Source: an uncultured virus (IMG/VR IMGVR_UViG_3300025848_000036) (Duplodnaviria > Heunggongvirae > Uroviricota > Caudoviricetes). Taken from it: 64,000 bases of DNA. Every line of letters begins with the position of its first letter. Within the stretch, counting starts at the first letter, position 1. Positions 26,841 through 64,000 of the stretch are shown here, piece after piece. The notes beneath the pieces were generated by a model. That model made no database searches. It had not been told where the DNA came from and was given only the letters and a program-made list of their open reading frames with translations. The stretch lies in IMG/VR virus record IMGVR_UViG_3300025848_000036; one strand, given 5' to 3'. Position numbers and translations under genes: made by a program.

Positions 26841-26913
26841 TGGTCTGTAGTTCAGTTGGTAGAACACTCGACTGTTAATCGAGATGTCGCAGGATCGAGA
26901 CCTGCCAGACCAG
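26841..26913 (+). tRNA. tRNA-Asn(GTT)
   Basis: Cloverleaf with TGGTCTG/CAGACCA acceptor stem; atypical T-loop ATCGAGA; no encoded CCA. Confidence 0.9.
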
Positions 26914-27025
26914 CATAGCGTATGTTTGTCCCTGTAACACGAAAGTGTCGGTCACACATCATCACATGCAGTGCACTGCCTCTGTGCCTAAGTCTAACTA
27001 GGACGCAACAACAAAGTTAGACACT

Positions 27026-27096
27026 GCGAATGTTGCATAATGGTAGTGCCTCTGCCTTCCAAGCAGAAGGTGGGAGTTCGATTCTCCCTATTCGCT
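27026..27096 (+). tRNA. tRNA-Gly(TCC)
   Basis: Cloverleaf; anticodon loop CTTCCAA. Confidence 0.93.
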
Positions 27097-27100
27097 CTGA

Positions 27101-27174
27101 GGTCCCGTAGTTCAGTTGGTTAGAACGCTTCCCTGTCACGGAAGAGGTCGACGGTTCAAGTCCGTTCGGGATCG
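27101..27174 (+). tRNA. tRNA-Asp(GTC)
   Basis: Cloverleaf; anticodon loop CTGTCAC. Confidence 0.93.
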
Positions 27175-27178
27175 CTTA

Positions 27179-27250
27179 GGCCCTATCGTCTAGTGGTTAG
27201 GACATCAGATTTTCAATCTGGAAACGAGAGTTCAATTCTCTCTAGGGCTA
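27179..27250 (+). tRNA. tRNA-Glu(TTC)
   Basis: Cloverleaf; anticodon loop TTTTCAA. Confidence 0.92.
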
Positions 27251-27251
27251 C

Positions 27252-27323
27252 GCCTCCTTAACTCAGGGGTAGAGTACTCGCCTTGTAAGCGAGTTGTCGT
27301 AGGTTCAAATCCTACAGGAGGCT
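27252..27323 (+). tRNA. tRNA-Thr(TGT)
   Basis: Cloverleaf; anticodon loop CTTGTAA. Confidence 0.93.
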
Positions 27324-27366
27324 CTGATGAATGTGTTGGTATAATGAGTTGTCGAAAGGTTTTGTA

Positions 27367-46860: not shown

Positions 46861-47610
46861 ATGGATAAAATAGTAGCAATGCGTGAAGAAATGGTCAAGC
46901 AAAGCATGGAAAATAATGGCGAGTTATGTACTTGTGATTGTGGCAAACCAAAATTTCCTCTTACCAGTACTAAACAAATTAGGTCCATATCCCCTGCACA
47001 AACACGTGGTACAAAAATTTTAGAAAAACGAGAAAGTATTATAGATGTTTTACAAAATACTCAGAGATCTTTAAATGTAATGGAAGTTGGAGTTATGGCT
47101 GGTGACTTTGCCGAACTTATGTATAATAATTTAAAGATAAATAAATTAGTTCTTGTAGATCCTTTTAATAATATTGATGAAATGTCATTAGATGGAAATC
47201 GAAGATTTAATAGAGAAACAAATTTAGAATTTGTTAAACAAAGATTTCAAAATAAAAATAATGTTGAGATTCTTCAAGGGTATTCTAGGAAGGTGCTTCC
47301 TACAAATTTTTTGGGAACAAATAATAATGATAAATTTGATTTTATTTATATAGATTCAAATCATGAGTTTTTTAATACATATAACGAAATTTTGTATTCA
47401 GCACAACTAACCAAAACAACTGGAATAATTGGAATAGATGATTACACTTTAAGTTTAAATGATCCACTTTATGTATGTGAAGTTATGCAGGCAGTTACTC
47501 AATTTTTAGATACAAACAGAGATTGGAAAGTTGCCTATTATTCATTTAATGATGCAGGAATTCCTAACATATACCTATCTAGATATTTTGAAGATGAGTA
47601 CCCCCAGTAG
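46861..47610 (+). CDS. Class I SAM methyltransferase (Methyltransf_24-like, leaderless)
   Basis: MEVGVMAG, FDFIYIDSNH, GIDDY. Confidence 0.8.
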   Translation: MDKIVAMREEMVKQSMENNGELCTCDCGKPKFPLTSTKQIRSISPAQTRGTKILEKRESIIDVLQNTQRSLNVMEVGVMAGDFAELMYNNLKINKLVLVDPFNNIDEMSLDGNRRFNRETNLEFVKQRFQNKNNVEILQGYSRKVLPTNFLGTNNNDKFDFIYIDSNHEFFNTYNEILYSAQLTKTTGIIGIDDYTLSLNDPLYVCEVMQAVTQFLDTNRDWKVAYYSFNDAGIPNIYLSRYFEDEYPQ

Positions 47611-47670
47611 GATTCGAACCTACGACTTACTGCTTAGAAGGCAGTTACTCTTCCGCTGAGTTATGGAGGT
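47599..47670 (-). tRNA. tRNA-Arg(TCT)
   Basis: Reverse-complement cloverleaf; anticodon loop CTTCTAA. Confidence 0.92.
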
Positions 47671-47674
47671 ATAG

Positions 47675-47747
47675 TGCCCCTGGTTGGATTCGAACCAACG
47701 CTGAATGAATTTTAAGTCCACCACCTCTACCGCTGGGTTACAAGGGC
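47675..47747 (-). tRNA. tRNA-Leu(TAA), short variable arm
   Basis: GCCCTTG/CAGGGGC acceptor stem; anticodon loop CTTAAAA; 5-nt variable loop. Confidence 0.88.
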
Positions 47748-47750
47748 TTG

Positions 47751-47821
47751 TTCTCTCATCTAGACTCGAACTAAAACTAAAGGCTTCAAAGGCCTCTGTG
47801 CTGCCATTACACCATGAGAGA
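47751..47821 (-). tRNA. tRNA-Gln(TTG)
   Basis: TCTCTCA/TGAGAGA acceptor stem; anticodon loop CTTTGAA. Confidence 0.9.
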
Positions 47822-50633: not shown

Positions 50634-53280
50634 TCATAATTCAGGAAGTATTATTCTCCAAGCATCGCCAGTTTCTGGGTCTTCATGCCACAAATAATCC
50701 CAATAAGGAACACCCCTGTCGTCATAATCATCCCAGGCTTCCCCGTTCATATCTAAATCTAATCCGCTTAGATCCATTTTATATATAGTGCCCCACCAGT
50801 CGTATGGATAATTTAAAAATTTATATGTTCTAAATCCAATTTTTTCTTTTATTTCGTCCCAAACGGTGTATCCTTCATTTGACTCATAAATTTGATCATT
50901 TGCCCTTAATCCAATATGAAAAAACCACATTGAAATAGGATGGAATACATAATTTGCTAACCAGCGTAAGGGAAGAACGTTGGTTTTGTGTTCTGGAATA
51001 AAAATATTATCTCTCATTTAATTTCCTTAATTATTTTATACTTTCTATACATGCAGTAATAGCCTTAAACCAATTCTTAGCACCTGGATATTCCATATTA
51101 GCGGTTATCCCACGATTAGCATGTTTGTACCATGTAATAGTTAAACCATTCTTTTTATATACAAAATTTGGAGGACAGCCTTTAGCATGAGGATTATTTT
51201 CGTCTTCATCCCAACCTGCATCACACCAGCAATATGTACGCATTTCAAATACATCGTTGACATACTCTGGTTCACCAGAATTGGAGGTAAGTAAATTTCC
51301 ATACCCATATTGTCCATATGATTGTCCACGGAATTCAGCAATAACCTCAGCAATCATATGAAGTCCATCGGTAGCCCAATCAGCCTCATAAGACTGCATA
51401 GGTGTATTGCTAAGAAGCATTTGTCCTAATTCCATCAAAACTTTCCCTCTAATTCCTTTTTATCTAAACCAAAATAGTTTTCGTGGTATCCATAGGACAT
51501 CTTCTTTAACTTTTTGTCAATTGCTCTCCACATCCCACGTTCGGTATATGCTAAGCCACCCTTACAGGCACGACCCCAATATCCTTCATCTGGCTTTGTA
51601 CCCATCTGATACCACTTCTGAATCTCCCAGAATCTGGCTCTCTTGCCATATCTCCAGTCACGAGTAACTTTAATTATATATTTTGGTCGTTCAATTTTCT
51701 TTTTGCTCATTTCTTTTTACCCTTTTTATTTTTTGCAGGGTTATCATAATTTAAATTTAGCATTCCTTGCTCCAACAATGCTTTGTCCAATATAAAATTA
51801 GGACAGTGATTAACTGCTAAATCGTACACATTTCCACAGTCACCACATTGCCAAGTAATGTCATCTACATTAACAAATAGTCTCATGTATCCATCATAGC
51901 ACTAAGACCCTTGGTTACGCAAGTCTCTATGCTATCTCCGTACCTATGATTAAACATTTGACCAGTCTCCCAAGGAAAGTCATCTTCTACAATTAAATAA
52001 GTGTTGATTGATTCTGGGTCCGTGTCTCCTGAAACTCTACCAATATGATAAGTTTTAATTAGTTTATCATTAACATAAATTGGAATATGAATTGGCATTA
52101 ATTAGGAGCCTTTTCAATCAACTCTGCATAAGCATATGCCCAAGCCTTTGCTTCATCAGATGGATGAGGAAACTCTTCTCGCATTTGTTGTGCTATCTTT
52201 TTTATTACTTGATGTTCGATAACTGGTCTAATTGCATTTTCAATCAGCCAACAGATTTGGCAATTATCTTCGTGTGGATGGTTTATCATTTATTTACCAT
52301 TTCTCGCAATATCAACTGCATCCGCTAATCCATCTGCATAAGTTAAATGTTCTGGATTATCTGTTTTTCTCCAAACAGCAGCAATTTCTTGTGCTACCTG
52401 CTCACGCAGGGCAGTTTCAAGATCATGCAATGTCTTTCTAATTAAAGCATCTTCCATGTTCCCTGCATATTCCATCAAAAGTTGTAGAGTTAATTGTTCT
52501 TTATCCATTTACTTTTCTCAATTCTGCTTTTAGTTCTCTTTTAATAGTTTTCCATTCATGTTCATGATAATACCAACGATTAGCATGATCATTAATAGCA
52601 TAGGCTTCTACTTCTTCTGCAGTTCCCCAGAAAATCCCCTTAACAATTTCTTCTTTTAATTCTTCAACCTGTTCATCGTTTTCACAACCTTCAAGGGCAT
52701 CGCAATAAGAGCATGATCCATATCCAACTACAGTAAATCCAAATTTATTACCATTTTTGAGCAGGTATACATAATCACCCTGCCAATCACCAATATTCCA
52801 GTCTTTAATAATGGTTCCAGCAGATGCAACTAAAGAGTCATAAGACTCTGATGGATAATAATATTCTTCGCTCATAACTTTCCTAACATATATTTAATTC
52901 GTCTTAATATTGACTTAGATTCAAAACACTCAGGATGAATGTCATACCCATACTCTGCATATTGTCCAAGGGCATAATTCCAAGCATCTTGCCACTTTTC
53001 AAATTTTTTATCAGTAATTTCAGCCTCTGGCATAATCTGTTCATCATTTTCATCAGTATCAGAAGCAAATCCTATTACCGCAGCATATCCACCAAGTGGA
53101 TGTTTGCGTACTATATAAAAATTATCTGCGCTCATTTTTTAATAACTCTTTTGCTTGCTCTGGATCATTAAGATCGACATTCATTGTGATGCAATACACA
53201 TATTCTCCACGCATGCCTAGCATCCAGGCAACGGTATTTAATATTTTAGATTTCCATCTAGGCATTGCTAATATTTCCAT
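50634..53280 (-). other. Operon of small hypothetical genes (50634-51017, 51031-51438, 51435-51710, 51883-52098, 52098-52289, 52290-52508, 52501-52875, 52872-53135, first gene starting at 53280)
   Basis: Tightly coupled ORFs headed by a TTGACA...TATACT leaderless promoter at 53287-53316. Confidence 0.65.
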
Positions 53281-53312: not shown

Positions 53313-54134
53313 TCAAGCCTTTTGCATTTCTTCTACAAGTCTCCATATCTTAGTAAGGTCTACTTGGTCTGTGTGGATAAGAAACTCTTGAATACCCCAT
53401 TTTTCTGCAATATCTTTTAATTGTTTTACGACTTGCTCATGCGTACCTTTAATTGGGTGTTTATCATGTTTTCTAAATGCATAATCATGATATTCAATAC
53501 TTTCAGGGTCTTGCCCTTCATCAAGAATTAAAGGATCTATAACAAAAAGTAACTTGGCTTTGATTCTAGACATTGTTTCTTCAGTAAGCATGCGATCATT
53601 AATTATGATATAGTCTGCATACTCATTTGCTGTCCTGATTGTGGTATCAGATGCTCCAACCACATATAGCACAGTCCTAAATTCATCTTCTACGCCCAAT
53701 TTTTTATGTTCTTCCAAAAGCACTTTAAATTTTTTCATCCATCTTTCTGTTAATGCAACACGCTTTTCGTGGCTATTAATCAATTCTACATCCCATGGAT
53801 AATCTCTAATAACCTTTTGTTCTATTTCGCCTCTATAGTTGCCACTAATAAGATTAAGATCTAATCTGTGTTTACCCCATCTTTGTGCAGTTACAAACGT
53901 TTTCATGGCATATTCTGGAGACATACCATAAGCAGGCAAAGCAATCATTATTTTAATTTTGACGGTATGCTCAAATATATCTGATAAATGTAATAAAAAA
54001 TCTGTTCCGTATGGACCATATGGCAATAGTACAGATACTATATTCCTGTTTTCTAAAAACATGAACATATCCCTTAAGCCTTTTTTGGTATTGGGCCAAT
54101 TATTTCTATGCATCCAATGGAATTTGTATGCCAC
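53313..54134 (-). CDS. Luciferase-like (LLM) flavin-dependent monooxygenase-like protein
   Basis: SVLLPY, IMIAL..Y.MSPEY, RLDLNLISG, VVGASD...ANEYAD, GTHEQV. Confidence 0.6.
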   Translation of the reverse strand: MAYKFHWMHRNNWPNTKKGLRDMFMFLENRNIVSVLLPYGPYGTDFLLHLSDIFEHTVKIKIMIALPAYGMSPEYAMKTFVTAQRWGKHRLDLNLISGNYRGEIEQKVIRDYPWDVELINSHEKRVALTERWMKKFKVLLEEHKKLGVEDEFRTVLYVVGASDTTIRTANEYADYIIINDRMLTEETMSRIKAKLLFVIDPLILDEGQDPESIEYHDYAFRKHDKHPIKGTHEQVVKQLKDIAEKWGIQEFLIHTDQVDLTKIWRLVEEMQKA

Positions 54135-54138
54135 TAGA

Positions 54139-54690
54139 CTACTCTCCTGATGTGTTTGTTAAATTTCCTAAAATTTCTGTATCAAAAAAGATCATCGCTA
54201 TGTGTGTTCCTGGTTCAAACTTTTTTTCTGGTCTAGAATGCTTAACCCTAGCAGGATAAAATGCTATTGCTTCGTTATCTTTTAATTCATAAGTATTACC
54301 ATTAACAATTATTGGCCAAGAGGTATTTCCACTAAGTTGATAATCAACCATAAAAATATCTGCCTTGTCTTCATGTTCAACAAGGTGTGGTCTTCCATAT
54401 TCTGGGGCATACTCAGTATATCCAGCACGAATAAACCTGACATCAAGCCCTTCTTCGTTGGCAATACTAATAATCTTATCCTTGACATGATCTGGCACTT
54501 CAAGTTCCAATGTGATCTTACCTAAACTAACGTTATGAATTATTTTGTGGGTATCTGTAAATTCAGGTTCTGGCTCTTTAGCAAACTCTTCCCAGCGTTT
54601 AACGGCAGATGTTTCTTTAATTTGATTTGCTTGATTACGCAAATTTAATATGTCATCTTCGGACAATAGTTCTTTGATGTGCTTTTCCAT
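54139..54690 (-). CDS. 2OG-Fe(II) oxygenase-like protein (subfamily B, leaderless)
   Basis: YAPEYGRPHLVEHED, VDYQLSGN, HSR. Confidence 0.65.
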   Translation of the reverse strand: MEKHIKELLSEDDILNLRNQANQIKETSAVKRWEEFAKEPEPEFTDTHKIIHNVSLGKITLELEVPDHVKDKIISIANEEGLDVRFIRAGYTEYAPEYGRPHLVEHEDKADIFMVDYQLSGNTSWPIIVNGNTYELKDNEAIAFYPARVKHSRPEKKFEPGTHIAMIFFDTEILGNLTNTSGE

Positions 54691-54764
54691 ATAAACCATT
54701 ATAGCGTATCTTTAAGTTCGGCGGTAAATAGAAATGTTAACCACCCCATGCTACTACCGTAGCA

Positions 54765-55334
54765 CTATTGGTTAGGAGTTTCTCGTGGCACCCATAATGT
54801 TTCATCACCATTGGCTGCATATCTAGCAAACACAAATAACAGGTCTGATAAACGATTGAGGTATTTTGGTACTAAGGTATTGACTTCAGCACCGTCATTT
54901 GACATATGAACCACAAACGCCATCCAAACATCTCGTTCTGCCCTACGGACAATTGCTCTAGCATTATGCAATAATACTGCTCCTTGTGGTCCAGCAGGCA
55001 GGATAAATGAATGTAAAGGCTCTAGTTGAGAGTTATATTTATCGATTACATCTTCAAGAAATGTGATCTGGCTCTCAATGATTCGTAATCCCTCAGCAGG
55101 AAGCGGTACTGAGAGGTCTGCCCCTAAGTCAAATAGATCATTTTGAACCTGACCAAGAAGAGCGGAGATATAAGGATTAACAAATGTTCGTGCTAGACCA
55201 ATTGCTGAGTTGGCTTCATCCACAGACCCAATAGCCTCAATAAGTGGGCTAATCTTTGCAACTCTTTCGTTGTTACCAATAGAGGTAAGGCCTTCATCGC
55301 CTGTTTTTGTATAGATTTTTGTTAGGTGTACCAT
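54765..55334 (-). CDS. pduO: ATP:cob(I)alamin adenosyltransferase (PduO type)
   Basis: KIYTKTGDEG, GSVDEANS, QNDLFDLGADL, RRAER, YLNRLSDLLF. Confidence 0.93.
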   Translation of the reverse strand: MVHLTKIYTKTGDEGLTSIGNNERVAKISPLIEAIGSVDEANSAIGLARTFVNPYISALLGQVQNDLFDLGADLSVPLPAEGLRIIESQITFLEDVIDKYNSQLEPLHSFILPAGPQGAVLLHNARAIVRRAERDVWMAFVVHMSNDGAEVNTLVPKYLNRLSDLLFVFARYAANGDETLWVPRETPNQ

Positions 55335-55517
55335 AGGTTAAGTTTATCAGATTTGGCACGGTATGTCAACTACGACTCCAACAATCCCTACATTTAGGTA
55401 AAGAATTATTATCTATTCCAATAGCCTTTTTACCACACTCACATATAAAAGTCTTGAATCCCAACAATATAGATAAATCATAGGGGTCATCATCAAGAGC
55501 CACAAGGCCATTATATA

Positions 55518-55646
55518 TTATTCTTCAAATGATATTTGTTGCTCAAACATTTTGTCCTGACATTTTGGACATTGCTTAGTAATGTTATCAGTCCCATAAT
55601 CAACCTTAAACATTACACCACAACTAAAACATAATACATCGAGCAT
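55518..55646 (-). CDS. Small Zn-ribbon protein (leaderless)
   Basis: CFSC...CPKC. Confidence 0.5.
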   Translation of the reverse strand: MLDVLCFSCGVMFKVDYGTDNITKQCPKCQDKMFEQQISFEE

Positions 55647-55673
55647 ATTCTTATTGTAGCATATAATGGTATT

Positions 55674-56006
55674 ATGAACGAGGCTATTTTGTATATTTTG
55701 TATAGTCCAATGCATAGGGCTATCAAAATAGGGATGAGTGATATCTCAGGTAAAAGGTTTGCTCAACATAGGACCAAGGGATGGCTCCTTGTTGCCTATT
55801 GGCATTTTTTCGAACGGGATCGAGCAAGAACCGTAGAATCCCTAGTACTAAAAACACTAAGAGAAAGATATGGACATGACAGGAACCAAGGTTTCCTTGA
55901 TAAGTCAGATATGCCTCAAAATGGATACACTGAGACATTTGATGCTTCAAAGATAACACGCAAAGGTTTGATCCGTATGGTCAATAGAGCGATTAAGGCT
56001 GTTTGA
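55674..56006 (+). CDS. GIY-YIG-like nuclease (leaderless)
   Basis: ILYIL...KIGMS....RFAQH...E...GYTETF. Confidence 0.65.
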   Translation: MNEAILYILYSPMHRAIKIGMSDISGKRFAQHRTKGWLLVAYWHFFERDRARTVESLVLKTLRERYGHDRNQGFLDKSDMPQNGYTETFDASKITRKGLIRMVNRAIKAV

Positions 56007-56160
56007 TACCGCTGGTTTTAGCAGTTATGAGTATATCCACAATCAGGACATTTCTCTCCTGGATTTGCTACACAATCATCACACCAATCTGGTGCATCTT
56101 TCCAAGATTTGCCTAAAGAATCATATTCTGGTTTGTCCATATGTACAGTATATCGTAAAG

Positions 56161-56370
56161 TTATCCACAGGTTCGAATACCCTTGATAATACAGGTTTCA
56201 ACTCCATCCCCATATCTATGTTCAAACTCTCTACCCATACTCCATAGTTCATCGTCCTGGACAACTAGATATTTATTAATGGAATCAGGGTTTGTATCCC
56301 CTGCTATTCGTCCAATATGGTAGGTTTTGATCAGTTTGTCATTGATATAAATTGGAATATGTATAGGCAT
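56161..56370 (-). CDS. Hypothetical protein, paralog of 51883..52098
   Basis: MPIHIPIY.NDKLIKTYHIGR...HRYGD..ETC is shared. Confidence 0.7.
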   Translation of the reverse strand: MPIHIPIYINDKLIKTYHIGRIAGDTNPDSINKYLVVQDDELWSMGREFEHRYGDGVETCIIKGIRTCG

Positions 56371-56411
56371 GGTTTAAGTATATATTGGGATAAGGGGTTT
56401 GTCAAGCATAG

Positions 56412-56431
56412 TTATCCACAAGTTATCCACA
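56412..56431 (+). promoter_or_regulatory. Tandem perfect DnaA boxes (candidate replication origin)
   Basis: TTATCCACA at 56412 and 56423; a third at 56161 and a one-mismatch copy at 56033. Confidence 0.65.
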
Positions 56432-56754
56432 TAAAAATCTTACTGATATTTTTCTTAGATGGGGTTAAAGTGGAGTGAAGTGGAGGATAGTGGGTAATGG
56501 AGCATTTATATCGTAGCGGCTCGTAATGCCAAACCACCTATCCTCATATCCAAACAAAATATCCAAACAATTCCAAACCACATTTGCAGGATTATAGCCC
56601 AAATATCCATATTTGTCAAATAAAAATATATAAGGTTTGGGCATTATACCTGCAAAACCTCTGTTTGTCAAGTATCTTCGTAAAGAAATTTTGAGCAAAA
56701 TGCCCAAATAAATCAAATAATGTTTGATATTATTTTATTTTGTTTGATATTGTT

Positions 56755-57390
56755 TTAAAACATAGAATTTTCTAAAGAAAAGGCTTTTGCAGTAGTATGC
56801 CATATAACTATAGCGTATCTATTGCCAGAGGTTACTTCTGTTGTACCGTGCCAGGTTTGAGACGGGAAGATCGTAATATCGCCTGGTACTGGATCATATA
56901 CAAAACCACCTAAATCCTCAGTGTATAGATCAAAATTACTCTTTCTTTCAAACTCTGACAAATAGGCAATCTTTCCACCTTCAAACTCATTGTTTAAATA
57001 TAATACACTTGAGCAAACTGTTGGATGAATTCCATGCTGATCTTTATGCATTCGTAATTGTAAACCAGGTGTTAGTTTGGTAAGGCTGATTCCTTCTATA
57101 TAGAGATGTGGTCCATCGTAATGGTAATATTCTTTAAATACCGCTTCGGCTCTACGTGCATAATCGTAAAGTTTTTCCATAAGTGGTTTGGGATGTACCG
57201 AAGGAGCAAAATCATTTGGAACATTAGATCTATAAACATCTCCTCGATCGTAGGCTTGACCTATATGTTTCGTAAAGACTTTTGGATCTTCACAATGTTT
57301 GTCTATATAGTCTACCCATTCCTGGGCCTCTGAATCTGAAATAAAATTATTAATGATCTTTATGTCGGGGATCAAGTTTATGCTCCTCAC
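56755..57390 (-). CDS. Prolyl-4-hydroxylase-like 2OG-Fe(II) oxygenase
   Basis: HKD, YLNNEFEGG, HGTTEVTSGNRY. Confidence 0.82.
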   Translation of the reverse strand: MRSINLIPDIKIINNFISDSEAQEWVDYIDKHCEDPKVFTKHIGQAYDRGDVYRSNVPNDFAPSVHPKPLMEKLYDYARRAEAVFKEYYHYDGPHLYIEGISLTKLTPGLQLRMHKDQHGIHPTVCSSVLYLNNEFEGGKIAYLSEFERKSNFDLYTEDLGGFVYDPVPGDITIFPSQTWHGTTEVTSGNRYAIVIWHTTAKAFSLENSMF

Positions 57391-60599: not shown

Positions 60600-60662
60600 A
60601 CATTTATTTTACTGGAATCATGGGGAATTGTCAAGCCCTTCTTAATACGTTCTTAATGAAAA

Positions 60663-60740: not shown

Positions 60741-60768
60741 GAGCAGTTTTAATTCATGCTCAGGAATT
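60741..60768 (-). ncRNA. Conserved pseudoknot motif, copy 1
   Basis: AATTC-CT-GAGC-AT-GAATT-AAAACT-GCTC. Confidence 0.65.
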
Positions 60769-60775
60769 TTTTTAA

Positions 60776-61795
60776 TTATGCAACTTGCATAACATTCTGC
60801 ACAACTTTTAGCAGACGATTTTTTTCTGCGTTAATTGATGCATCGAAGCCAGAAGCAGCAGCAAGGATTGATTCGTTATTGCCACCACGAGCAGAGCGAT
60901 ACCAGTCAAGGCGTTCAGTAAGAGCGTTAAATGCACCCCACGCATTACCAGCAATCATGCCATTGAATTCGCCAGTGTAAATATCATTGATAACATCAAT
61001 TTTATTTTCCCACTTCTTCAATGCGCCCTTAGCATCTTTTTCAGGCTTTGGATAAGCAGCAAGAACAATATCGTTAAATTGCTTAGCATTAACTTCTTGC
61101 GAAATCATAGCGTGAGCCATTTTATCGAATTCGTCCATGTATGCATTAGCAAGACCAAGAGTCTCACGAGCAATCTGCACTTTACCATTGGCAGTTTGTG
61201 TGTGGCGAATCTTGAAAGATTGCTTAACGCCATTTTTCTTACGACCTACGCCACCAAGAGCAAGGTTAAGAGTATTAGCGCATACTACACGAACAGGTGT
61301 AATTGATGCCTGAATAGCGATTGAGCCATCGTGTGATGTGTTGATGAGCAAATAAGTTTTTACTTTATCTGCAACACCATTTGGGTCTAGGATTGTCTCA
61401 CGCTCAAGAGCAAGAGAGCCAAATACTACACGACCGCCACGAATAGCACCAGCAGTTTCCCAACGACCTCCGCCGTCTAGGATATTATCACCAAATGAAA
61501 ATAAATCTTCATTTTGCAATACATGATAACGCTCACCAACAACACCAAGAACATCAGTTTGTGATGAATCAGTAGGATTGGTACGAACAACATATTGATA
61601 AGATTTATCAGATGTTAAGTGAGATGGAATTTCCATATCTTCTAATCTAACATTCCAATTAGATAGATTAGCAGCATCTAGCATTTCGCTAGTAGTTTTT
61701 TCTTCAGTGAATACAGTGCCTAGACCATGCCAAGCAGGTTCACGGAATGATGCGAATGAAGCAACGCCATTTTGCGTTTCGAGTTCATGAGCCAT
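60776..61795 (-). CDS. DUF932 family protein (TIGR03299-like)
   Basis: PAWHGLG, LGVVGERY..LQN, ETAG, NTSHDGS, PVRVVCANT, IRHT, WGAFNALTE. Confidence 0.88.
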   Translation of the reverse strand: MAHELETQNGVASFASFREPAWHGLGTVFTEEKTTSEMLDAANLSNWNVRLEDMEIPSHLTSDKSYQYVVRTNPTDSSQTDVLGVVGERYHVLQNEDLFSFGDNILDGGGRWETAGAIRGGRVVFGSLALERETILDPNGVADKVKTYLLINTSHDGSIAIQASITPVRVVCANTLNLALGGVGRKKNGVKQSFKIRHTQTANGKVQIARETLGLANAYMDEFDKMAHAMISQEVNAKQFNDIVLAAYPKPEKDAKGALKKWENKIDVINDIYTGEFNGMIAGNAWGAFNALTERLDWYRSARGGNNESILAAASGFDASINAEKNRLLKVVQNVMQVA

Positions 61796-61882
61796 TTTTT
61801 TCCTTTCGATTGTTAATTTAAGTATAACAGGACAGGCTGACAAATGCAAATCGAGATAGTTAAACATGGGGCAAATCGGACA

Positions 61883-61898
61883 TGTGGCTTAAATCACA
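61883..61898. promoter_or_regulatory. CRP-like box
   Basis: TGTGG-CTTAAA-TCACA, upstream of TTGCAT-17-TATACT. Confidence 0.55.
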
Positions 61899-61976
61899 GG
61901 ATCTTAAGGCGTGTCGTAACTTGACAAATCAAAGTTTTGCCCCCCGAGCATTTTTGCCAGGAATAGAATTGAGAAG

Positions 61977-62002
61977 GGGCCTTTTAAACTCGTGCCCAGG
62001 AG
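61977..62002 (-). ncRNA. Conserved pseudoknot motif, copy 2
   Basis: CTC-CT-GGGC-AC-GAG-TTTAAAAG-GCCC. Confidence 0.6.
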
Positions 62003-62045
62003 CGGTAGATCCTAAAGAAAGGATGAAAGGGACCTACCAGTTCTT

Positions 62046-62456
62046 TCAATAGTCAACATTGTCTACAGACGATGACACATGTGTGATTTTGTCAATGTCA
62101 TATGTAATTGCATCAAAATCAATATCGCTGATGATTGAATCTACGTCTTCGCCTGCAGGTACTTCTACGGTAATGTAGTAAGTAACGTTTACTTCAACTT
62201 CAACTTCCTTAGTAAGTTCGAATCCACAAATTTCTGCAATCTCTTCTGCATTGGTTTGGGAAATCTCACGTTGCTCTAGGGCCTCAATTGTCCATGTATG
62301 CATACCGTCACGAATTCCCTGCAGTTCACCACGTGTTGCATAGTCACGTTGTGTTACACGCTGCACGTGCTCCTCTAACTGCTGAATGCGTTCGTCCTTT
62401 TGAGCAATTTGAGACTTAAGATAGTCCTCAGTGGCATTAATCATTGTTTGGTCCAT
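62046..62456 (-). CDS. Hypothetical protein
   Basis: SD GAAAGG; coiled coil followed by an acidic beta-rich region. Confidence 0.6.
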   Translation of the reverse strand: MDQTMINATEDYLKSQIAQKDERIQQLEEHVQRVTQRDYATRGELQGIRDGMHTWTIEALEQREISQTNAEEIAEICGFELTKEVEVEVNVTYYITVEVPAGEDVDSIISDIDFDAITYDIDKITHVSSSVDNVDY

Positions 62457-62719
62457 TATTCAATATCCTTTCCCATTGAATCCATTTCGTTAATTGTTTC
62501 AAGCATATCATTTAACTGCGCTTCTGTCAAACAAGCGTGTGTGACTAATGAGGCTGTTAGTGAAGCAAGATGAGCAGAGTAGTGAAACATTGCGTCAGAA
62601 AATTCTTCGTCAGTCATATTTTCACGAGATGAAGAAATTGACTTAGCCATAATTAATGTGCTAAAATCTGTGACGGCACTTCCAGTAGCGTCTTGAATTG
62701 CGAGTGCGGTTGATATCAT
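62456..62719 (-). CDS. Hypothetical protein
   Basis: Promoter TTGCAT-17-TATGAT; SD GAAAGG. Confidence 0.6.
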   Translation of the reverse strand: MISTALAIQDATGSAVTDFSTLIMAKSISSSRENMTDEEFSDAMFHYSAHLASLTASLVTHACLTEAQLNDMLETINEMDSMGKDIE

Positions 62720-62797
62720 TTTTTCCCTTTCTTTTGTACAATAATATAATCATAGCACTGGGGTCTGACAAATGCAACTTAATAGGCCCTCTTAAAA

Positions 62798-62813
62798 TGT
62801 GATTTGGGCCACA
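62798..62813. promoter_or_regulatory. CRP-like box
   Basis: TGTGA-TTTGGG-CCACA. Confidence 0.55.
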
Positions 62814-62858
62814 TCCTCGGGGGGTCCAAAATGTCCGAATTATTTACGCATAAATTAT

Positions 62859-62884
62859 GAGCCTTTTAGTGCCATGCTCAGGGC
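62859..62884 (-). ncRNA. Conserved pseudoknot motif, copy 3
   Basis: GCC-CT-GAGC-AT-GGC-ACTAAAAG-GCTC. Confidence 0.65.
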
Positions 62885-63034
62885 GTGTATCGCAATTTAA
62901 CGTTATGCGAGAACGATCTCACTAGGGGACTTTCGCAGAAGATCTGCCGTGAACGCAAGTGAGAAAACTAAGTGAGTTCTTACTTACGACATTGGGCGAG
63001 AACACTCACGAAACTGCCCCTGTTTCGTTCGCAA

Positions 63035-63202
63035 TTAGTAAGTTTTTACCATTGCAAATCGCTGTTGTCCATTTGCTAAGCGCAACATAACACGAGTTAC
63101 ATTTTTGCTTTGTGGCACAAACTTTTCAATTCGTCCTGTAACACCTGTTTTGCTTGTTGTGAATAAATCACCAATTTGGTAAGTGTATCCGCCTAATGTC
63201 AT
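63035..63202 (-). CDS. Small SH3/KOW-like protein
   Basis: YQIGDLFTTSKTGVTGRIE...RVML; SD GAAAGG before ATG63202. Confidence 0.6.
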   Translation of the reverse strand: MTLGGYTYQIGDLFTTSKTGVTGRIEKFVPQSKNVTRVMLRLANGQQRFAMVKTY

Positions 63203-63290
63203 TTTGGGTCTTGCCTTTCTGTTTTTGGGTCTTATTATTATTTTACTAGATTTTGGCAGGGAAGTCAAATACCCTCCCCTGCCTATCTAA

Positions 63291-63716
63291 TTACAAGTAT
63301 CTAGCGATAGCGTTGTAGGTAGAAGTAGAAACTACTTCCTCATCTGTCATCTTGAGAATACGGATTGCGTTCTCAATTTCCTCTTTCATTTCATTGTAAG
63401 AGTGTTGGTGTAGAACCTCAAAATCACGCTGTGGTTCAGCAGGAAAATCTGCTTCATTACAGGTTAGGTCAAAATCTACATTGAGAGTTTTGTTCCAAGA
63501 ACGATAGTTAGTGCGGAAGTTTTCTGCTTTTGCTATGTTAGCAACAGCAAACTTGCCAACTTCCTTACGCCACTTTTCTCTTGCCTTCTCATACTTTGCT
63601 TCGTTTTCTGATTGGTTAGCCCAACTCTTGTTGAGTTCTGCTAATTTAGTTTCTAAAGCCTTGATGACCTTAGTTGTAGCGATTTTCACGCTAATTGCTT
63701 TTTGGTTTCTAGCCAT
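63291..63716 (-). CDS. Hypothetical protein
   Basis: Promoter TTGATT-17-TATGAT; SD GAAAGG. Confidence 0.65.
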   Translation of the reverse strand: MARNQKAISVKIATTKVIKALETKLAELNKSWANQSENEAKYEKAREKWRKEVGKFAVANIAKAENFRTNYRSWNKTLNVDFDLTCNEADFPAEPQRDFEVLHQHSYNEMKEEIENAIRILKMTDEEVVSTSTYNAIARYL

Positions 63717-63786
63717 TGGTATTTCCTTTCTTTTTGGGTTTTTGGGTCTTATGCTATCATAGCATTTCTACGATAGAAAATCAAGT

Positions 63787-63816
63787 GAGCAGTTTATCCT
63801 CCACTTGCTCAGGTGG
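63787..63816 (-). ncRNA. Conserved pseudoknot motif, copy 4
   Basis: CCAC-CT-GAGC-AA-GTGG-AGGATAAACT-GCTC. Confidence 0.65.
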
Positions 63817-63833: not shown

Positions 63834-64000
63834 TTACTTTGCTGTCCAAGTTGTCCAGCGAGGTGTTCCAGCGACATCAAGTTTTACACGAACACTTTGT
63901 CCGTCTTTGTTTGGCTTGATTTCTGTGATAGTGCCTGTTACCTTTGACTTCTGTGAAGTGTAGAGGTCGCCTACCTTGTAAGTTGCTGTTGCTACTGCCA
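63834..64000 (-). CDS. Small SH3/KOW-like protein, paralog of 63035..63202 (start cut by the window edge)
   Basis: (M)AVATATYKVGDLYTSQKSKVTGTITEIKPNKDGQSVRVKLDVAGTPRWTTWTAK. Confidence 0.6.
   Translation of the reverse strand, partial: AVATATYKVGDLYTSQKSKVTGTITEIKPNKDGQSVRVKLDVAGTPRWTTWTAK

Follow-up and report, generated by a model that had tools for sequence, protein, structure and literature searches.

A compact H-type pseudoknot found behind phage stop codons and its possible role at the 3' ends of messages

Four intergenic elements on the - strand of this phage DNA were reported in a preliminary description to share one pseudoknotted layout, which raises the question of what RNA they encode and what it might do for the genes that they follow. 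The window is the whole 64-kb stretch analysed (64,000 nucleotides).

Four pseudoknots in the window

A structure descriptor in which the stems were left free matched exactly four H-type pseudoknots of 26-30 nt (copies A to D) when both strands of the window were scanned, and nothing in 40 order-3 Markov simulations of it, which bears out the four copies with their coordinates, strand and stems. The first stem (S1) had been said to differ in sequence in every copy and yet to pair, and all four stems were verified; the loop-to-tail helix (S2) also varies with compensation, as proposed. The features of the region are as follows, in the order of transcription.

63834..63998, - strand: 54-aa open frame preceding copy A; start past the window end; no family above cut-off
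63787..63816, - strand: pseudoknot copy A; S1 63816-63813/63804-63801 (CCAC/GUGG), S2 63810-63807/63790-63787 (GAGC/GCUC), L1 CU, 10-nt A-rich linker
63756..63784, - strand: sigma-70-like promoter beginning 2 nt past copy A; 9/12 matches, TG before the -10 element
63291..63716, - strand: 141-aa gene, no known family; a knot lies 5-6 nt behind it in related phages but is absent here
63245..63291, - strand: plain hairpin where relatives carry the pseudoknot; -24.9 kcal/mol, z -5.5; overlaps a promoter-like site at 63268-63240
63035..63202, - strand: 55-aa gene upstream of copy B
62888..63034, - strand: structured region from the 55-aa gene to copy B; z -4.3
62859..62884, - strand: pseudoknot copy B; S1 62884-62882/62873-62871 (GCC/GGC), S2 62879-62876/62862-62859 (GAGC/GCUC)
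62743..62771, - strand: sigma-70-like promoter downstream of copy B; 10/12 matches
62046..62719, - strand: two coupled genes (87 aa, 136 aa) of no known family upstream of copy C
61977..62002, - strand: pseudoknot copy C; S1 62002-62000/61991-61989 (CUC/GAG), S2 61997-61994/61980-61977, compensated (GGGC/GCCC)
61815..61850, - strand: overlapping sigma-70-like sites downstream of copy C; 9/12 matches each
60776..61795, - strand: DUF932 gene, 339 aa, upstream of copy D (PF06067, phrog_1221)
60741..60768, - strand: pseudoknot copy D; S1 60768-60764/60755-60751 (AAUUC/GAAUU), S2 60761-60758/60744-60741 (GAGC/GCUC)
60606..60634, - strand: sigma-70-like promoter downstream of copy D; 11/12 matches

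A covariance model trained on 80 family members, three of the window copies among them, ranked copies A-D first in the window, with the untrained copy at 16 bits (E 0.025) and the next match at 12.9 bits (E 0.17). Single-strand folding, a method blind to pseudoknots, gave z-scores near zero at all four. A near-identical phage record holds a fifth copy, outside the range of the window.

As had been described, every copy lies 3' of a gene and upstream of a promoter-like site. The stop codon of a - strand open reading frame precedes the fourth S1 position by 17, 149, 42 and 8 nt in A, B, C and D, respectively, with a small hairpin between the stop of the 54-aa frame and copy A, 150 nt of structured sequence after the 55-aa gene, ending in copy B, and a hairpin between the 136-aa gene and copy C. 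Copy D begins, at its first paired base, 7 nt after the DUF932 stop and is followed by a long U-rich tract; 7 of the 10 nt after copy D are U, and 6 of the 10 after copy A. The downstream promoters, at 63784, 62771, 61850/61843 and 60634, are consensus matches only, and 56-64 kb holds 41 such matches versus 24 +/- 5 in shuffles. A scan for hairpin terminators gave no match at copies A-D, and no tmRNA was found in the window. The DUF932 protein shares 54-55% identity with genes in the terminal regions of Streptomyces phages, among them Riptide; no copy of the knot was found in Riptide.

A minimal fold and its relatives

Across the family, S1 has 3-4 bp and is closed by C-G, L1 is CU and S2 has 4 bp (RRGC/GCYY), after which come an A that never varies and a single variable base. 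The retention of CU and A noted at the outset stands, but the fixed UAAA does not, the real linker being NNW-AAA-(CU or AG), with AAA-CU or AAA-AG at its end. Among the 461 viral copies listed, 289 linkers end in CU and 155 in AG, and the next bases are GC, not AC. The loop starts with CU in 101/104 and has A second-last in 104/104. The C-G closing pair occurs in 180/185 unfiltered matches, in about 108 of which the pattern itself fixed that C.

The core sequence is well conserved, as a DNA-level site might be, and the spacing of the knot resembles that of frameshift and read-through pseudoknots. Even so, a DNA site, a recoding signal or chance is an extremely improbable explanation. In 185 matches collected with no constraint on S1 pairing, S1 pairs 2-4 are formed in 99, 97 and 82% versus 51, 46 and 42% of shuffled sequences, which largely refutes the DNA-site and chance readings, and against recoding, 71 of the 97 copies at 5-6 nt from a stop follow UAA, all three frames are usually closed soon after, and slippery-like heptamers accompany only 18 of the 461 viral copies listed. 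Free-position scans found strong covariation in S1, covariation at two positions of S2 and a bias to the sense strand, and these support the earlier proposal that selection acts on RNA structure.

At least 461 distinct viral copies are present among the matches listed, with 1-6 copies per phage record searched and tandem copies at three loci (L370, L046 and L024). Carriers comprise cultured phages of several phyla (among them Arthrobacter phage Molivia, Mycobacterium phage Labelle, which grows in M. smegmatis, and Synechococcus phage S-EIVl) and some bacteria; the phages have hosts in the Actinobacteria, Cyanobacteria, Firmicutes and Proteobacteria and also include crAss-like phages and one Microviridae genome. 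Phages of Erwinia and Vibrio carry the pseudoknot. Around the Vibrio phage copy, the minus-strand annotation is probably spurious because a 141-aa plus-strand ORF overlaps it. Matches in GTDB are mixed with chance (stem 1 present in 54/122), one 32-nt query found no match in E. coli genomes, and the pattern did not match the nearest record (G001, a 74%-complete fragment). On the sequence evidence, the four repeats are members of a widespread minimal knotted RNA fold that is common behind stop codons in unrelated phages, in many cases with a probable RNA cleavage site directly after it, and a 27-base element that lacks a model of its own is consequently invisible to annotation.

At threshold, Rfam 15 returned only 8 tRNAs over the whole window and matched no copy at or above a gathering score; at E <= 10, the 57-64 kb part gave three weak unrelated matches only. 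The statement that the motif belongs to no named family therefore survives as regards Rfam thresholds but not as regards kinship, since relatives exist in the 5' half of GP20-b, in PK1 of some Campylobacterota tmRNAs and in coremin. The apparent links of the phage knot to tmRNA PK1 and GP20-b are new here. Among the papers listed in literature searches, which covered pseudoknots of phages, stability of mRNA, protection of the REP kind and motifs near GP20, none described the knot, and those listed for its exact motif words were unrelated by title, although the supplements of PMC5737381 or PMC10690425 may hold an entry; motif words are absent from six supplementary files of PMC10690425, and the accessible sections of the Minerva preprint and the permutation paper hold no relevant passage.

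GP20-b (RF03003) is presented in the available text of PMC10690425 as a predicted motif upstream of GP20 genes. Its consensus starts with a short stem whose loop pairs to a segment after UAAAA, and it aligns over the knot at locus L382; members upstream of GP20 or scaffold genes scored 26.2 bits (Lactobacillus phage phiAQ113) and 20.8 bits (L034), below the 36.2-bit cut-off. The window copies gave no GP20-b match at E <= 10, nor did 12 further loci at E <= 0.5. Unlike GP20-b, the window copies have no second hairpin or tail and stand alone behind stops, and the genes downstream are DUF932 or of no known family rather than GP20 or scaffold genes.

One pattern match fell exactly on PK1 of a tmRNA (RF00023). 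In some Campylobacterota, for example a Nautiliaceae genome, PK1 has the same topology and nearly the same sequence, with compensated stems of its own, but it lies within tmRNA, before the resume codon. Either common descent or convergence could account for the likeness. A binding site or mimic whose partner is the ribosome or a protein of host or phage, such as a copy of tmRNA PK1 or the operator half of GP20-b, would suit the finding that the phage model detects PK1 in 4/30 Campylobacterota tmRNAs at E <= 0.0012 (9/30 with a looser descriptor), the presence of the same knot at the start of the GP20-b consensus and the retention of loop and linker bases across phyla. We regard this as very unlikely: there is no match in 21/30 tmRNAs of Campylobacterota or in any of the 10 examined from the likely host family, the host range speaks against a single protein partner, and base triples alone would probably account for the conserved loop bases. 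A review, in its available part, also holds that a stable hairpin can replace PK1, which is thought to be structural (PMC3968760). The decoy role suggested earlier found no supporting evidence.

Coremin (xrRNA-C and xrRNA-WCC) is known from plant and other eukaryotic RNA viruses and, in the accessible text of PMC6546385, PMC10520033 and PMC10321173, has a short first stem closed by Y-R. It requires a first hairpin of 3-5 bp with a Y-R closing pair (PMC6546385), and the phage knot has both. The two also share C first and A second-last in the loop, tandem copies and an untranslated or intergenic position. The spacers agree in part, with AAA-CU in the same register but GC after the phage linker where the coremin spacer reads AAA-CU-AC. 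The phage knot differs in its 8-nt loop with U at position 2, its canonical 4-bp stem 2 and its lack of a downstream hairpin, and in having AG as an alternative to CU. Its L1 of CU and four S2 pairs likewise depart from the single-G L1 and 3-bp stem 2 that define xrRNA-WCC in the available part of PMC10321173, and it occurs in DNA phages and bacteria, including hosts without a 5'->3' exonuclease.

A coremin-like barrier to RNase J, or to RNase E acting from the 5' end, might preserve the RNA downstream of the knot. The shared 3-4 bp first stem, C-G closing pair, loop bases and AAA-CU register point this way, as does the commonest 8-nt linker (9/81), which equals the first eight coremin spacer bases printed in the accessible portion of PMC10520033. 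Tandem copies, 5'-leader copies and inter-tRNA copies fit, and RNase J is encoded by 20 of 21 genomes around a Nanopelagicaceae genome of the likely host group (one of the 20 being the unpublished G073). Such resistance is nonetheless rather unlikely. The second hairpin that coremin requires follows 48 of the 461 listed copies versus 44 +/- 6 when shuffled, and 0/4 in the window; loop position 2 is U (101/104), not the G of YGAD/YGNNAD; cleavage before a tRNA or at a hammerhead would part the knot from the downstream RNA; and phages of Erwinia and Vibrio are carriers. Frameshift pseudoknots of similar size failed to stall Xrn1, according to the available text of PMC10321173. The same text describes luteoviral frameshift pseudoknots (BWYV and PLRV type), which are likewise compact and H-type with a short L1 and an A-rich loop across stem 1, but the phage knot is intergenic, behind a stop, with no slippery site and no open frame beyond.

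Spacing behind stop codons

The strongest clue, missed in the preliminary description, is a fixed minimum distance from the stop codon. From the stop to the first paired base, 8 knots lie within 3 nt, 116 at 4-8 nt and 103 at 9-30 nt (n=227), as against 33, 23 and 70 for plain hairpins that follow other genes in those loci (n=126). The peak at 5-7 nt holds after clustering by upstream peptide (41, 20 and 14 of 153 clusters at 5, 6 and 7 nt) and is absent for antisense frames.

This spacing recalls the ribosome termination structure (RTS), which lies about 5 nt behind the stop, at the edge of the ribosome (PMC7518266, in the part available); there, the RTS is a sequence-independent folding signal and pseudoknots do not appear, whereas the phage knot is one defined fold and about half of its copies lie further from the stop. 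A pseudoknot form of RTS, placed at the mRNA entry of the terminating ribosome, would block sliding or re-initiation into a downstream gene, tRNA or ribozyme. The excess at 4-8 nt over plain hairpins, its survival of clustering, its absence in antisense and the matching RTS position argue for such an insulator, as does the stalling of scanning ribosomes by coremin (PMC10520033, accessible text), and all hosts have ribosomes. Insulation is still an unlikely main role. Of the window copies, D alone falls in that range; A, B and C lie 17, 149 and 42 nt off and behind other hairpins, and neither U-rich tails nor inter-tRNA copies are explained. Moreover, the stop codon is a UGA inside the knot in 9 clear bacterial cases (a 20-aa ORF) and 5 viral copies, so ribosomes can enter the knot; no conserved continuation that would indicate read-through, frameshifting or selenocysteine at this internal UGA was seen.

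Downstream contexts and a possible 3' cap

A tRNA begins 3-18 nt downstream (peak at 4) of 52 of the 461 viral copies listed, whereas 8 have one upstream within the 200 nt scanned and none has one in antisense. In 32 of the 52 the stop lies 5-8 nt upstream, so that the knot fills the whole gap; in the annotated Arthrobacter phage Molivia, for example, the order is SSB gene, knot, tRNA-Gly. Type III hammerhead-like matches, below the gathering score, lie downstream of two copies. At least 6 U occur in the next 10 nt of 78 of the 461 listed copies, where about 18 would be expected.

These tails would suit a pseudoknot-type intrinsic terminator or pause, in which stem 2 forms last and, with the U-rich tail, releases or pauses polymerase before the next promoter. 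The roughly fourfold excess of tails, the U-rich stretches after D and A, the promoter-like site after all four window copies and the lower frequency of a nearby ribosome-binding site for U-rich copies (16/78 versus 127/383, p 0.03) favour it. However, 383/461 listed copies have no tail, 52 run straight into a tRNA, the tail shows no association with a -10 element further on (p 0.32) and the window copies have no hairpin terminator; a strict terminator scan, with 3 matches upstream and 2 downstream of the 461 listed copies, is too sparse to inform. We consider this reading improbable, and the general role of non-canonical terminator raised earlier is unlikely because the tail is confined to those 78 copies and many others stand directly before a tRNA or ribosome-binding site.

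Of the roles first suggested, 3'-end protection is the best fit to the contexts. We tentatively favour, at somewhat less than an even chance, the reading that this portable, compact pseudoknot serves as a minimal 3' end, or cap, of the gene before it. The 3' end would form a few bases past the knot, by RNase P at an adjoining tRNA, a hammerhead, a U-rich tail or trimming, and the knot would then halt 3'->5' exonucleases of the PNPase or RNase II/R type, so that the mRNA of each early cassette of this phage would be stable and would have a defined end before the next promoter is reached. A terminating ribosome must not collide with the knot, and the minimum stop distance may reflect the footprint of that ribosome. 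REP stem-loops of enterobacteria are also repeated structures just behind stops and are reported to protect the mRNA upstream of them against 3' exonucleases. They are simple palindromes that a transposase spreads, whereas the phage element is a pseudoknot with conserved tertiary-type bases.

For a cap speaks the way the knot travels with its upstream gene. Where this phage and two relatives share orthologous junctions, the knot keeps the same upstream gene while the downstream neighbour varies; a U-tract follows the DUF932 knot in this phage and a tRNA in G050, and behind the 141-aa gene the plain hairpin replaces the knot in this phage. Copies adjoining tRNAs, hammerheads and U-tails agree with a cap, as do convergent contexts with no same-strand gene downstream (L493 and L384). 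So does the presence of the knot in Erwinia and Vibrio phages, the gamma-proteobacteria using RNase E/G almost exclusively (PMC3997798, available text).

Other contexts stand against it. Apparent 5'-leader copies follow TATAAT 18-37 nt before a start codon (L426, L433, L443, L452, L453, L479 and L684; divergent in L439 and L667), two lie between tRNAs (L194 and L599), those at the GP20-type loci L011 and L456 lie behind terminator-like hairpins, and in a permuted tmRNA one occupies the spacer. Of the characterised relatives coremin is the nearest, and it blocks 5'->3' enzymes as well as scanning ribosomes. Only four S2 pairs face a 3' nuclease. The models are barely told apart by gene orientation, 170/180 intergenic copies lying between co-directional genes versus 413/448 control gaps.

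Were the cap reading true, a pseudoknot would take the role usually held by terminator hairpins, and the survival of phage mRNA after excision of an adjacent tRNA or ribozyme cleavage would be explained. If the block instead acts on the 5' side, the knot would be a bacterial xrRNA or a defined ribosome insulator. It is possible, though doubtful, that one minimal fold is common to tmRNA PK1, GP20-b, coremin and hundreds of DNA phages, and that in bacteria it is a mechanical roadblock placed exactly where mRNA enters the terminating ribosome, so as to insulate translation and resist exonucleases; the fold would then be the bacterial equivalent of xrRNAs and would offer a canonical model of the structure of coremin, reported as unsolved in 2023. 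In any case, the element could serve as a compact part in synthetic operons and as a Watson-Crick template for coremin modelling.

RNA contigs from two studies of the same year and habitat break off just inside the promoters that follow copy B (at 62725/62719) and copy C (at 61789/61787), a weak hint in favour of a cap; a run that is probably DNA continues. The stretches from copies B, C and D to the next promoters are largely uncovered by RNA contigs, and a single contig, from one study, has its end at 62853, 6 nt beyond copy B; neither the missing cover nor an end seen in one study counts as evidence. Against a cap, two RNA libraries contain contigs that span copy A together with the promoter after it, which may reflect read-through or DNA. 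Within the 136-aa gene, contigs of two studies also end, at 62125/62129.

Four pseudoknot copies and their fold

The preliminary description placed four H-type pseudoknots of common layout on the minus strand of the window, and all four were seen there:

63787-63816, minus strand: copy A
62859-62884, minus strand: copy B
61977-62002, minus strand: copy C
60741-60768, minus strand: copy D

With the stem sequences left free, a descriptor gave exactly these four matches in the window and zero in 40 Markov simulations of it. The copies lie in a block of short minus-strand genes in which a sigma-70-like site heads each unit. Because the one gene there with a known family, DUF932 (upstream of copy D), shares 54-55% identity with Streptomyces phage genes near the genome end, we infer that these genes probably belong to an actinobacterial phage and form its early region. 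Sequence of this stretch was also contained in freshwater RNA libraries. In the near-identical phage record G048 these four copies recur, and some 2.8 kb past copy A there is a fifth, whose stem 2 is AAGC/GCUU; the relatives G049 and G050 carry five and six. The view that the motif belongs to no named family held at Rfam threshold: an Rfam search of the window returned only tRNAs at that level, and one of 57-64 kb returned nothing relevant at E <= 10. No description of the element was found in the literature searched, in which supplementary candidate lists may include an unnamed entry.

Each scan of IMG/VR used a pattern in which one part of the element was free, and all figures refer to the matches listed. 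With stem 1 free, at least three Watson-Crick pairs formed in the predicted register in 109 of the 128 distinct matches, compared with 0 and 5 matches when, as a control, the register was shifted by one base. Among 185 unfiltered fixed-length matches listed from two scans, the proportions with stem-1 pairs 2-4 intact were 99, 97, and 82% (51, 46, and 42% when shuffled), with every one of the four Watson-Crick types represented. Stem-1 pairing is kept despite sequence change, as had been claimed. The claimed covariation of the loop-tail helix (stem 2) stood in part: position 2 was paired in 86% versus 71% shuffled (highest shuffle, 78%; n = 64), whereas position 1, at 75% versus 66%, fell inside the shuffle range. 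With stem 2 free, the 114 matches listed comprised GAGC/GCUC (56), GAGC/GCUU (11), AAGC/GCUU (9), GGGC/GCCC (8), AGGC/GCCU (3), three other matched types (1 each), and 26 with a mismatch or no partner. L1 was CU in 101 of 104 matches listed, the base following stem 2 was always A (104 of 104), and the linker, ending AAA-CU or AAA-AG, most often measured 8 nt (81 of 120). When 80 copies were aligned (3 window copies, 50 taken from the 185, and 27 picked for variant stem 2), the alignment had 94.4% paired cells and a covariation of 0.509, reached by 0 of 500 shuffles, with part of the stem-2 pairing imposed by the search patterns themselves. The fold is shown by these comparisons.

Position behind stop codons and tie to the upstream gene

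Genes were called with a simple caller and checked by eye against four annotated loci. The knot is strand-specific: 180 of 184 copies examined were intergenic, 170 of these between motif-strand genes, 4 divergent, 3 convergent, and 3 without a downstream call, and none lay between two opposite-strand genes. It also keeps a minimum distance from the stop codon. Counted from the stop to the fourth stem-1 position, distances peak at 5, 6, and 7 nt (62, 35, and 26 of 440; 9 at 1-4 nt), a peak that persists when counted by upstream-peptide cluster and is absent behind stops of antisense frames. Plain hairpins at the remaining gene ends in these loci, identified with a crude scan, are not excluded from the nearest positions, with 33 of 126 starting at most 3 nt behind the stop versus 8 of 227 knots. 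In PMC7518266, on a ribosome termination structure, the folding window begins at a distance of 9 nt from the stop's first base, outside the entry tunnel, and this start coincides with the place of the knot. A ribosome insulator, on which this spacing would bear, is judged unlikely. Read-through and frameshifting did not pass frame tests on the copies. REP elements and frameshift spacer lengths served as general background for comparison.

The knot is tied to its upstream gene. In the window phage, G049, and G050, the same upstream gene keeps it, whereas downstream neighbours and inserted hairpins differ. Behind the 141-aa gene (63291..63716, minus strand) the knot of the relatives is replaced by a plain hairpin, and in a relative from sequencing run X4 the knot lies 6 nt 3' of the orthologue of this gene.

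63245-63291, minus strand: hairpin of -24.9 kcal/mol, overlapping a promoter-like site
62888-63034, minus strand: 150-nt stretch of strong structure (z -4.3) that separates the 55-aa gene from copy B and may be a small RNA or an extended 3' UTR

Some contexts point the other way on this tie: apparent 5' leaders, inter-tRNA sites, places behind terminators in GP20-type loci, and the spacer of a permuted crAss tmRNA. A common cassette, in which a -10 element is combined with a GC-rich hairpin of small size and a knot with an 11-nt linker, stands before unrelated genes (L426, L433, L439, L443, L452, L453, L479, L498, and L684) and looks like a mobile leader.

Downstream sequence and possible function

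Judged by comparison, the best, though tentative, reading of the knot is a 3'-end cap. The RNA evidence consists of assembled contigs. Behind copies B and C, contigs of two libraries end a short way into the promoters, and a probably-DNA run continues; this gives a weak hint that downstream RNAs begin at promoters rather than at the knot. Copy A is bridged by contigs of two libraries. A U-rich tail follows 78 of the 461 viral copies listed. Among the same 461, a start codon with ribosome-binding-site-like sequence lies within 50 nt downstream in 143, and a -10-like element lies within 80 nt downstream in 64 versus upstream in 37. A tRNA follows at 3-18 nt in 52 of the 461, cases that are not independent because many are tRNA-Asp or tRNA-Asn of related phages. 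RNase P acts at tRNA 5' ends. Type III hammerhead-like matches lie about 5 nt behind the knot at L003:429-487 and L118:237-295 (32-34 bits, below the gathering score). Beside the putative cap, a barrier to RNase J is doubtful, a terminator or pause signal improbable, and a binding site very improbable; cap, insulator, barrier, terminator, and binding roles need not be mutually exclusive. Neither tRNA cluster of the window has an upstream knot, unlike in G050:

26841-27324, plus strand: five tRNA genes
47598-47821, minus strand: three tRNA genes

Spread and likeness to known RNAs

At least 461 distinct viral copies pass the descriptor requiring both stems. Among cultured or annotated carriers, those inspected at the sequence level include the actinobacterial phages Labelle (Mycobacterium) and Molivia (Arthrobacter), Synechococcus phages S-RIM4 and S-EIVl, Paracoccus ParKuw1, Bacillus WH1, Lactobacillus phiAQ113, Staphylococcus phiNM4, Vibrio D456, crAss-like cr124_1, and one Microviridae genome; the inspected copy of Erwinia Berlingot has two canonical stem-1 pairs only. 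In cr124_1 (L379 / L745), one knot lies in the permuted tmRNA spacer, 4 nt before the second piece, and another lies 5' of a tRNA-like sequence and 3' of a variant knot closed by a G-C pair.

In GTDB, stem 1 was present in 54 of 122 matches listed, and one match was PK1 of a Nautiliaceae tmRNA. Of 30 Campylobacterota PK1, the phage model recovered 4 at E <= 0.0012, and 9 fitted a descriptor; in the likely host family, 0 of 10 tmRNA PK1 matched. GP20-b (RF03003) opens with the same knot, with a score below threshold. The viral coremin xrRNA of PMC10321173, PMC10520033, and PMC6546385 agrees with the knot in its closing pair, in the C and A of the loop, and in the spacer AAA-CU, whereas its loop G and second hairpin are not matched. 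By the defining features of each, the knot is not GP20-b, coremin, or tmRNA, yet it is of their kind.

A conserved 20-aa ORF (MKRF-x-VPRVAHC-xx-GC-xxx-S) that has a ribosome-binding site and a promoter-like region of its own occurs in diverse bacteria (GTDB loci L263, L272, L286, L306, L316, L323, L343, L354, and L371; by eye also L370 and L341). Its UGA stop lies within the pseudoknot, and at two loci it adjoins a gene resembling hldE/rfaE by translation.

Metabolic-type genes of the window phage lie at 53313-57390 (minus strand). Two similar ORFs of this phage both begin MPIHIPIY, which suggests a duplication:

53313-54134, minus strand: luciferase-like monooxygenase (weak match)
54765-55334, minus strand: cobalamin adenosyltransferase (family match above cut-off)
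56755-57390, minus strand: 2OG-Fe(II) oxygenase (weak match)
51883-52098, minus strand: 71-aa ORF
56161-56370, minus strand: 69-aa ORF
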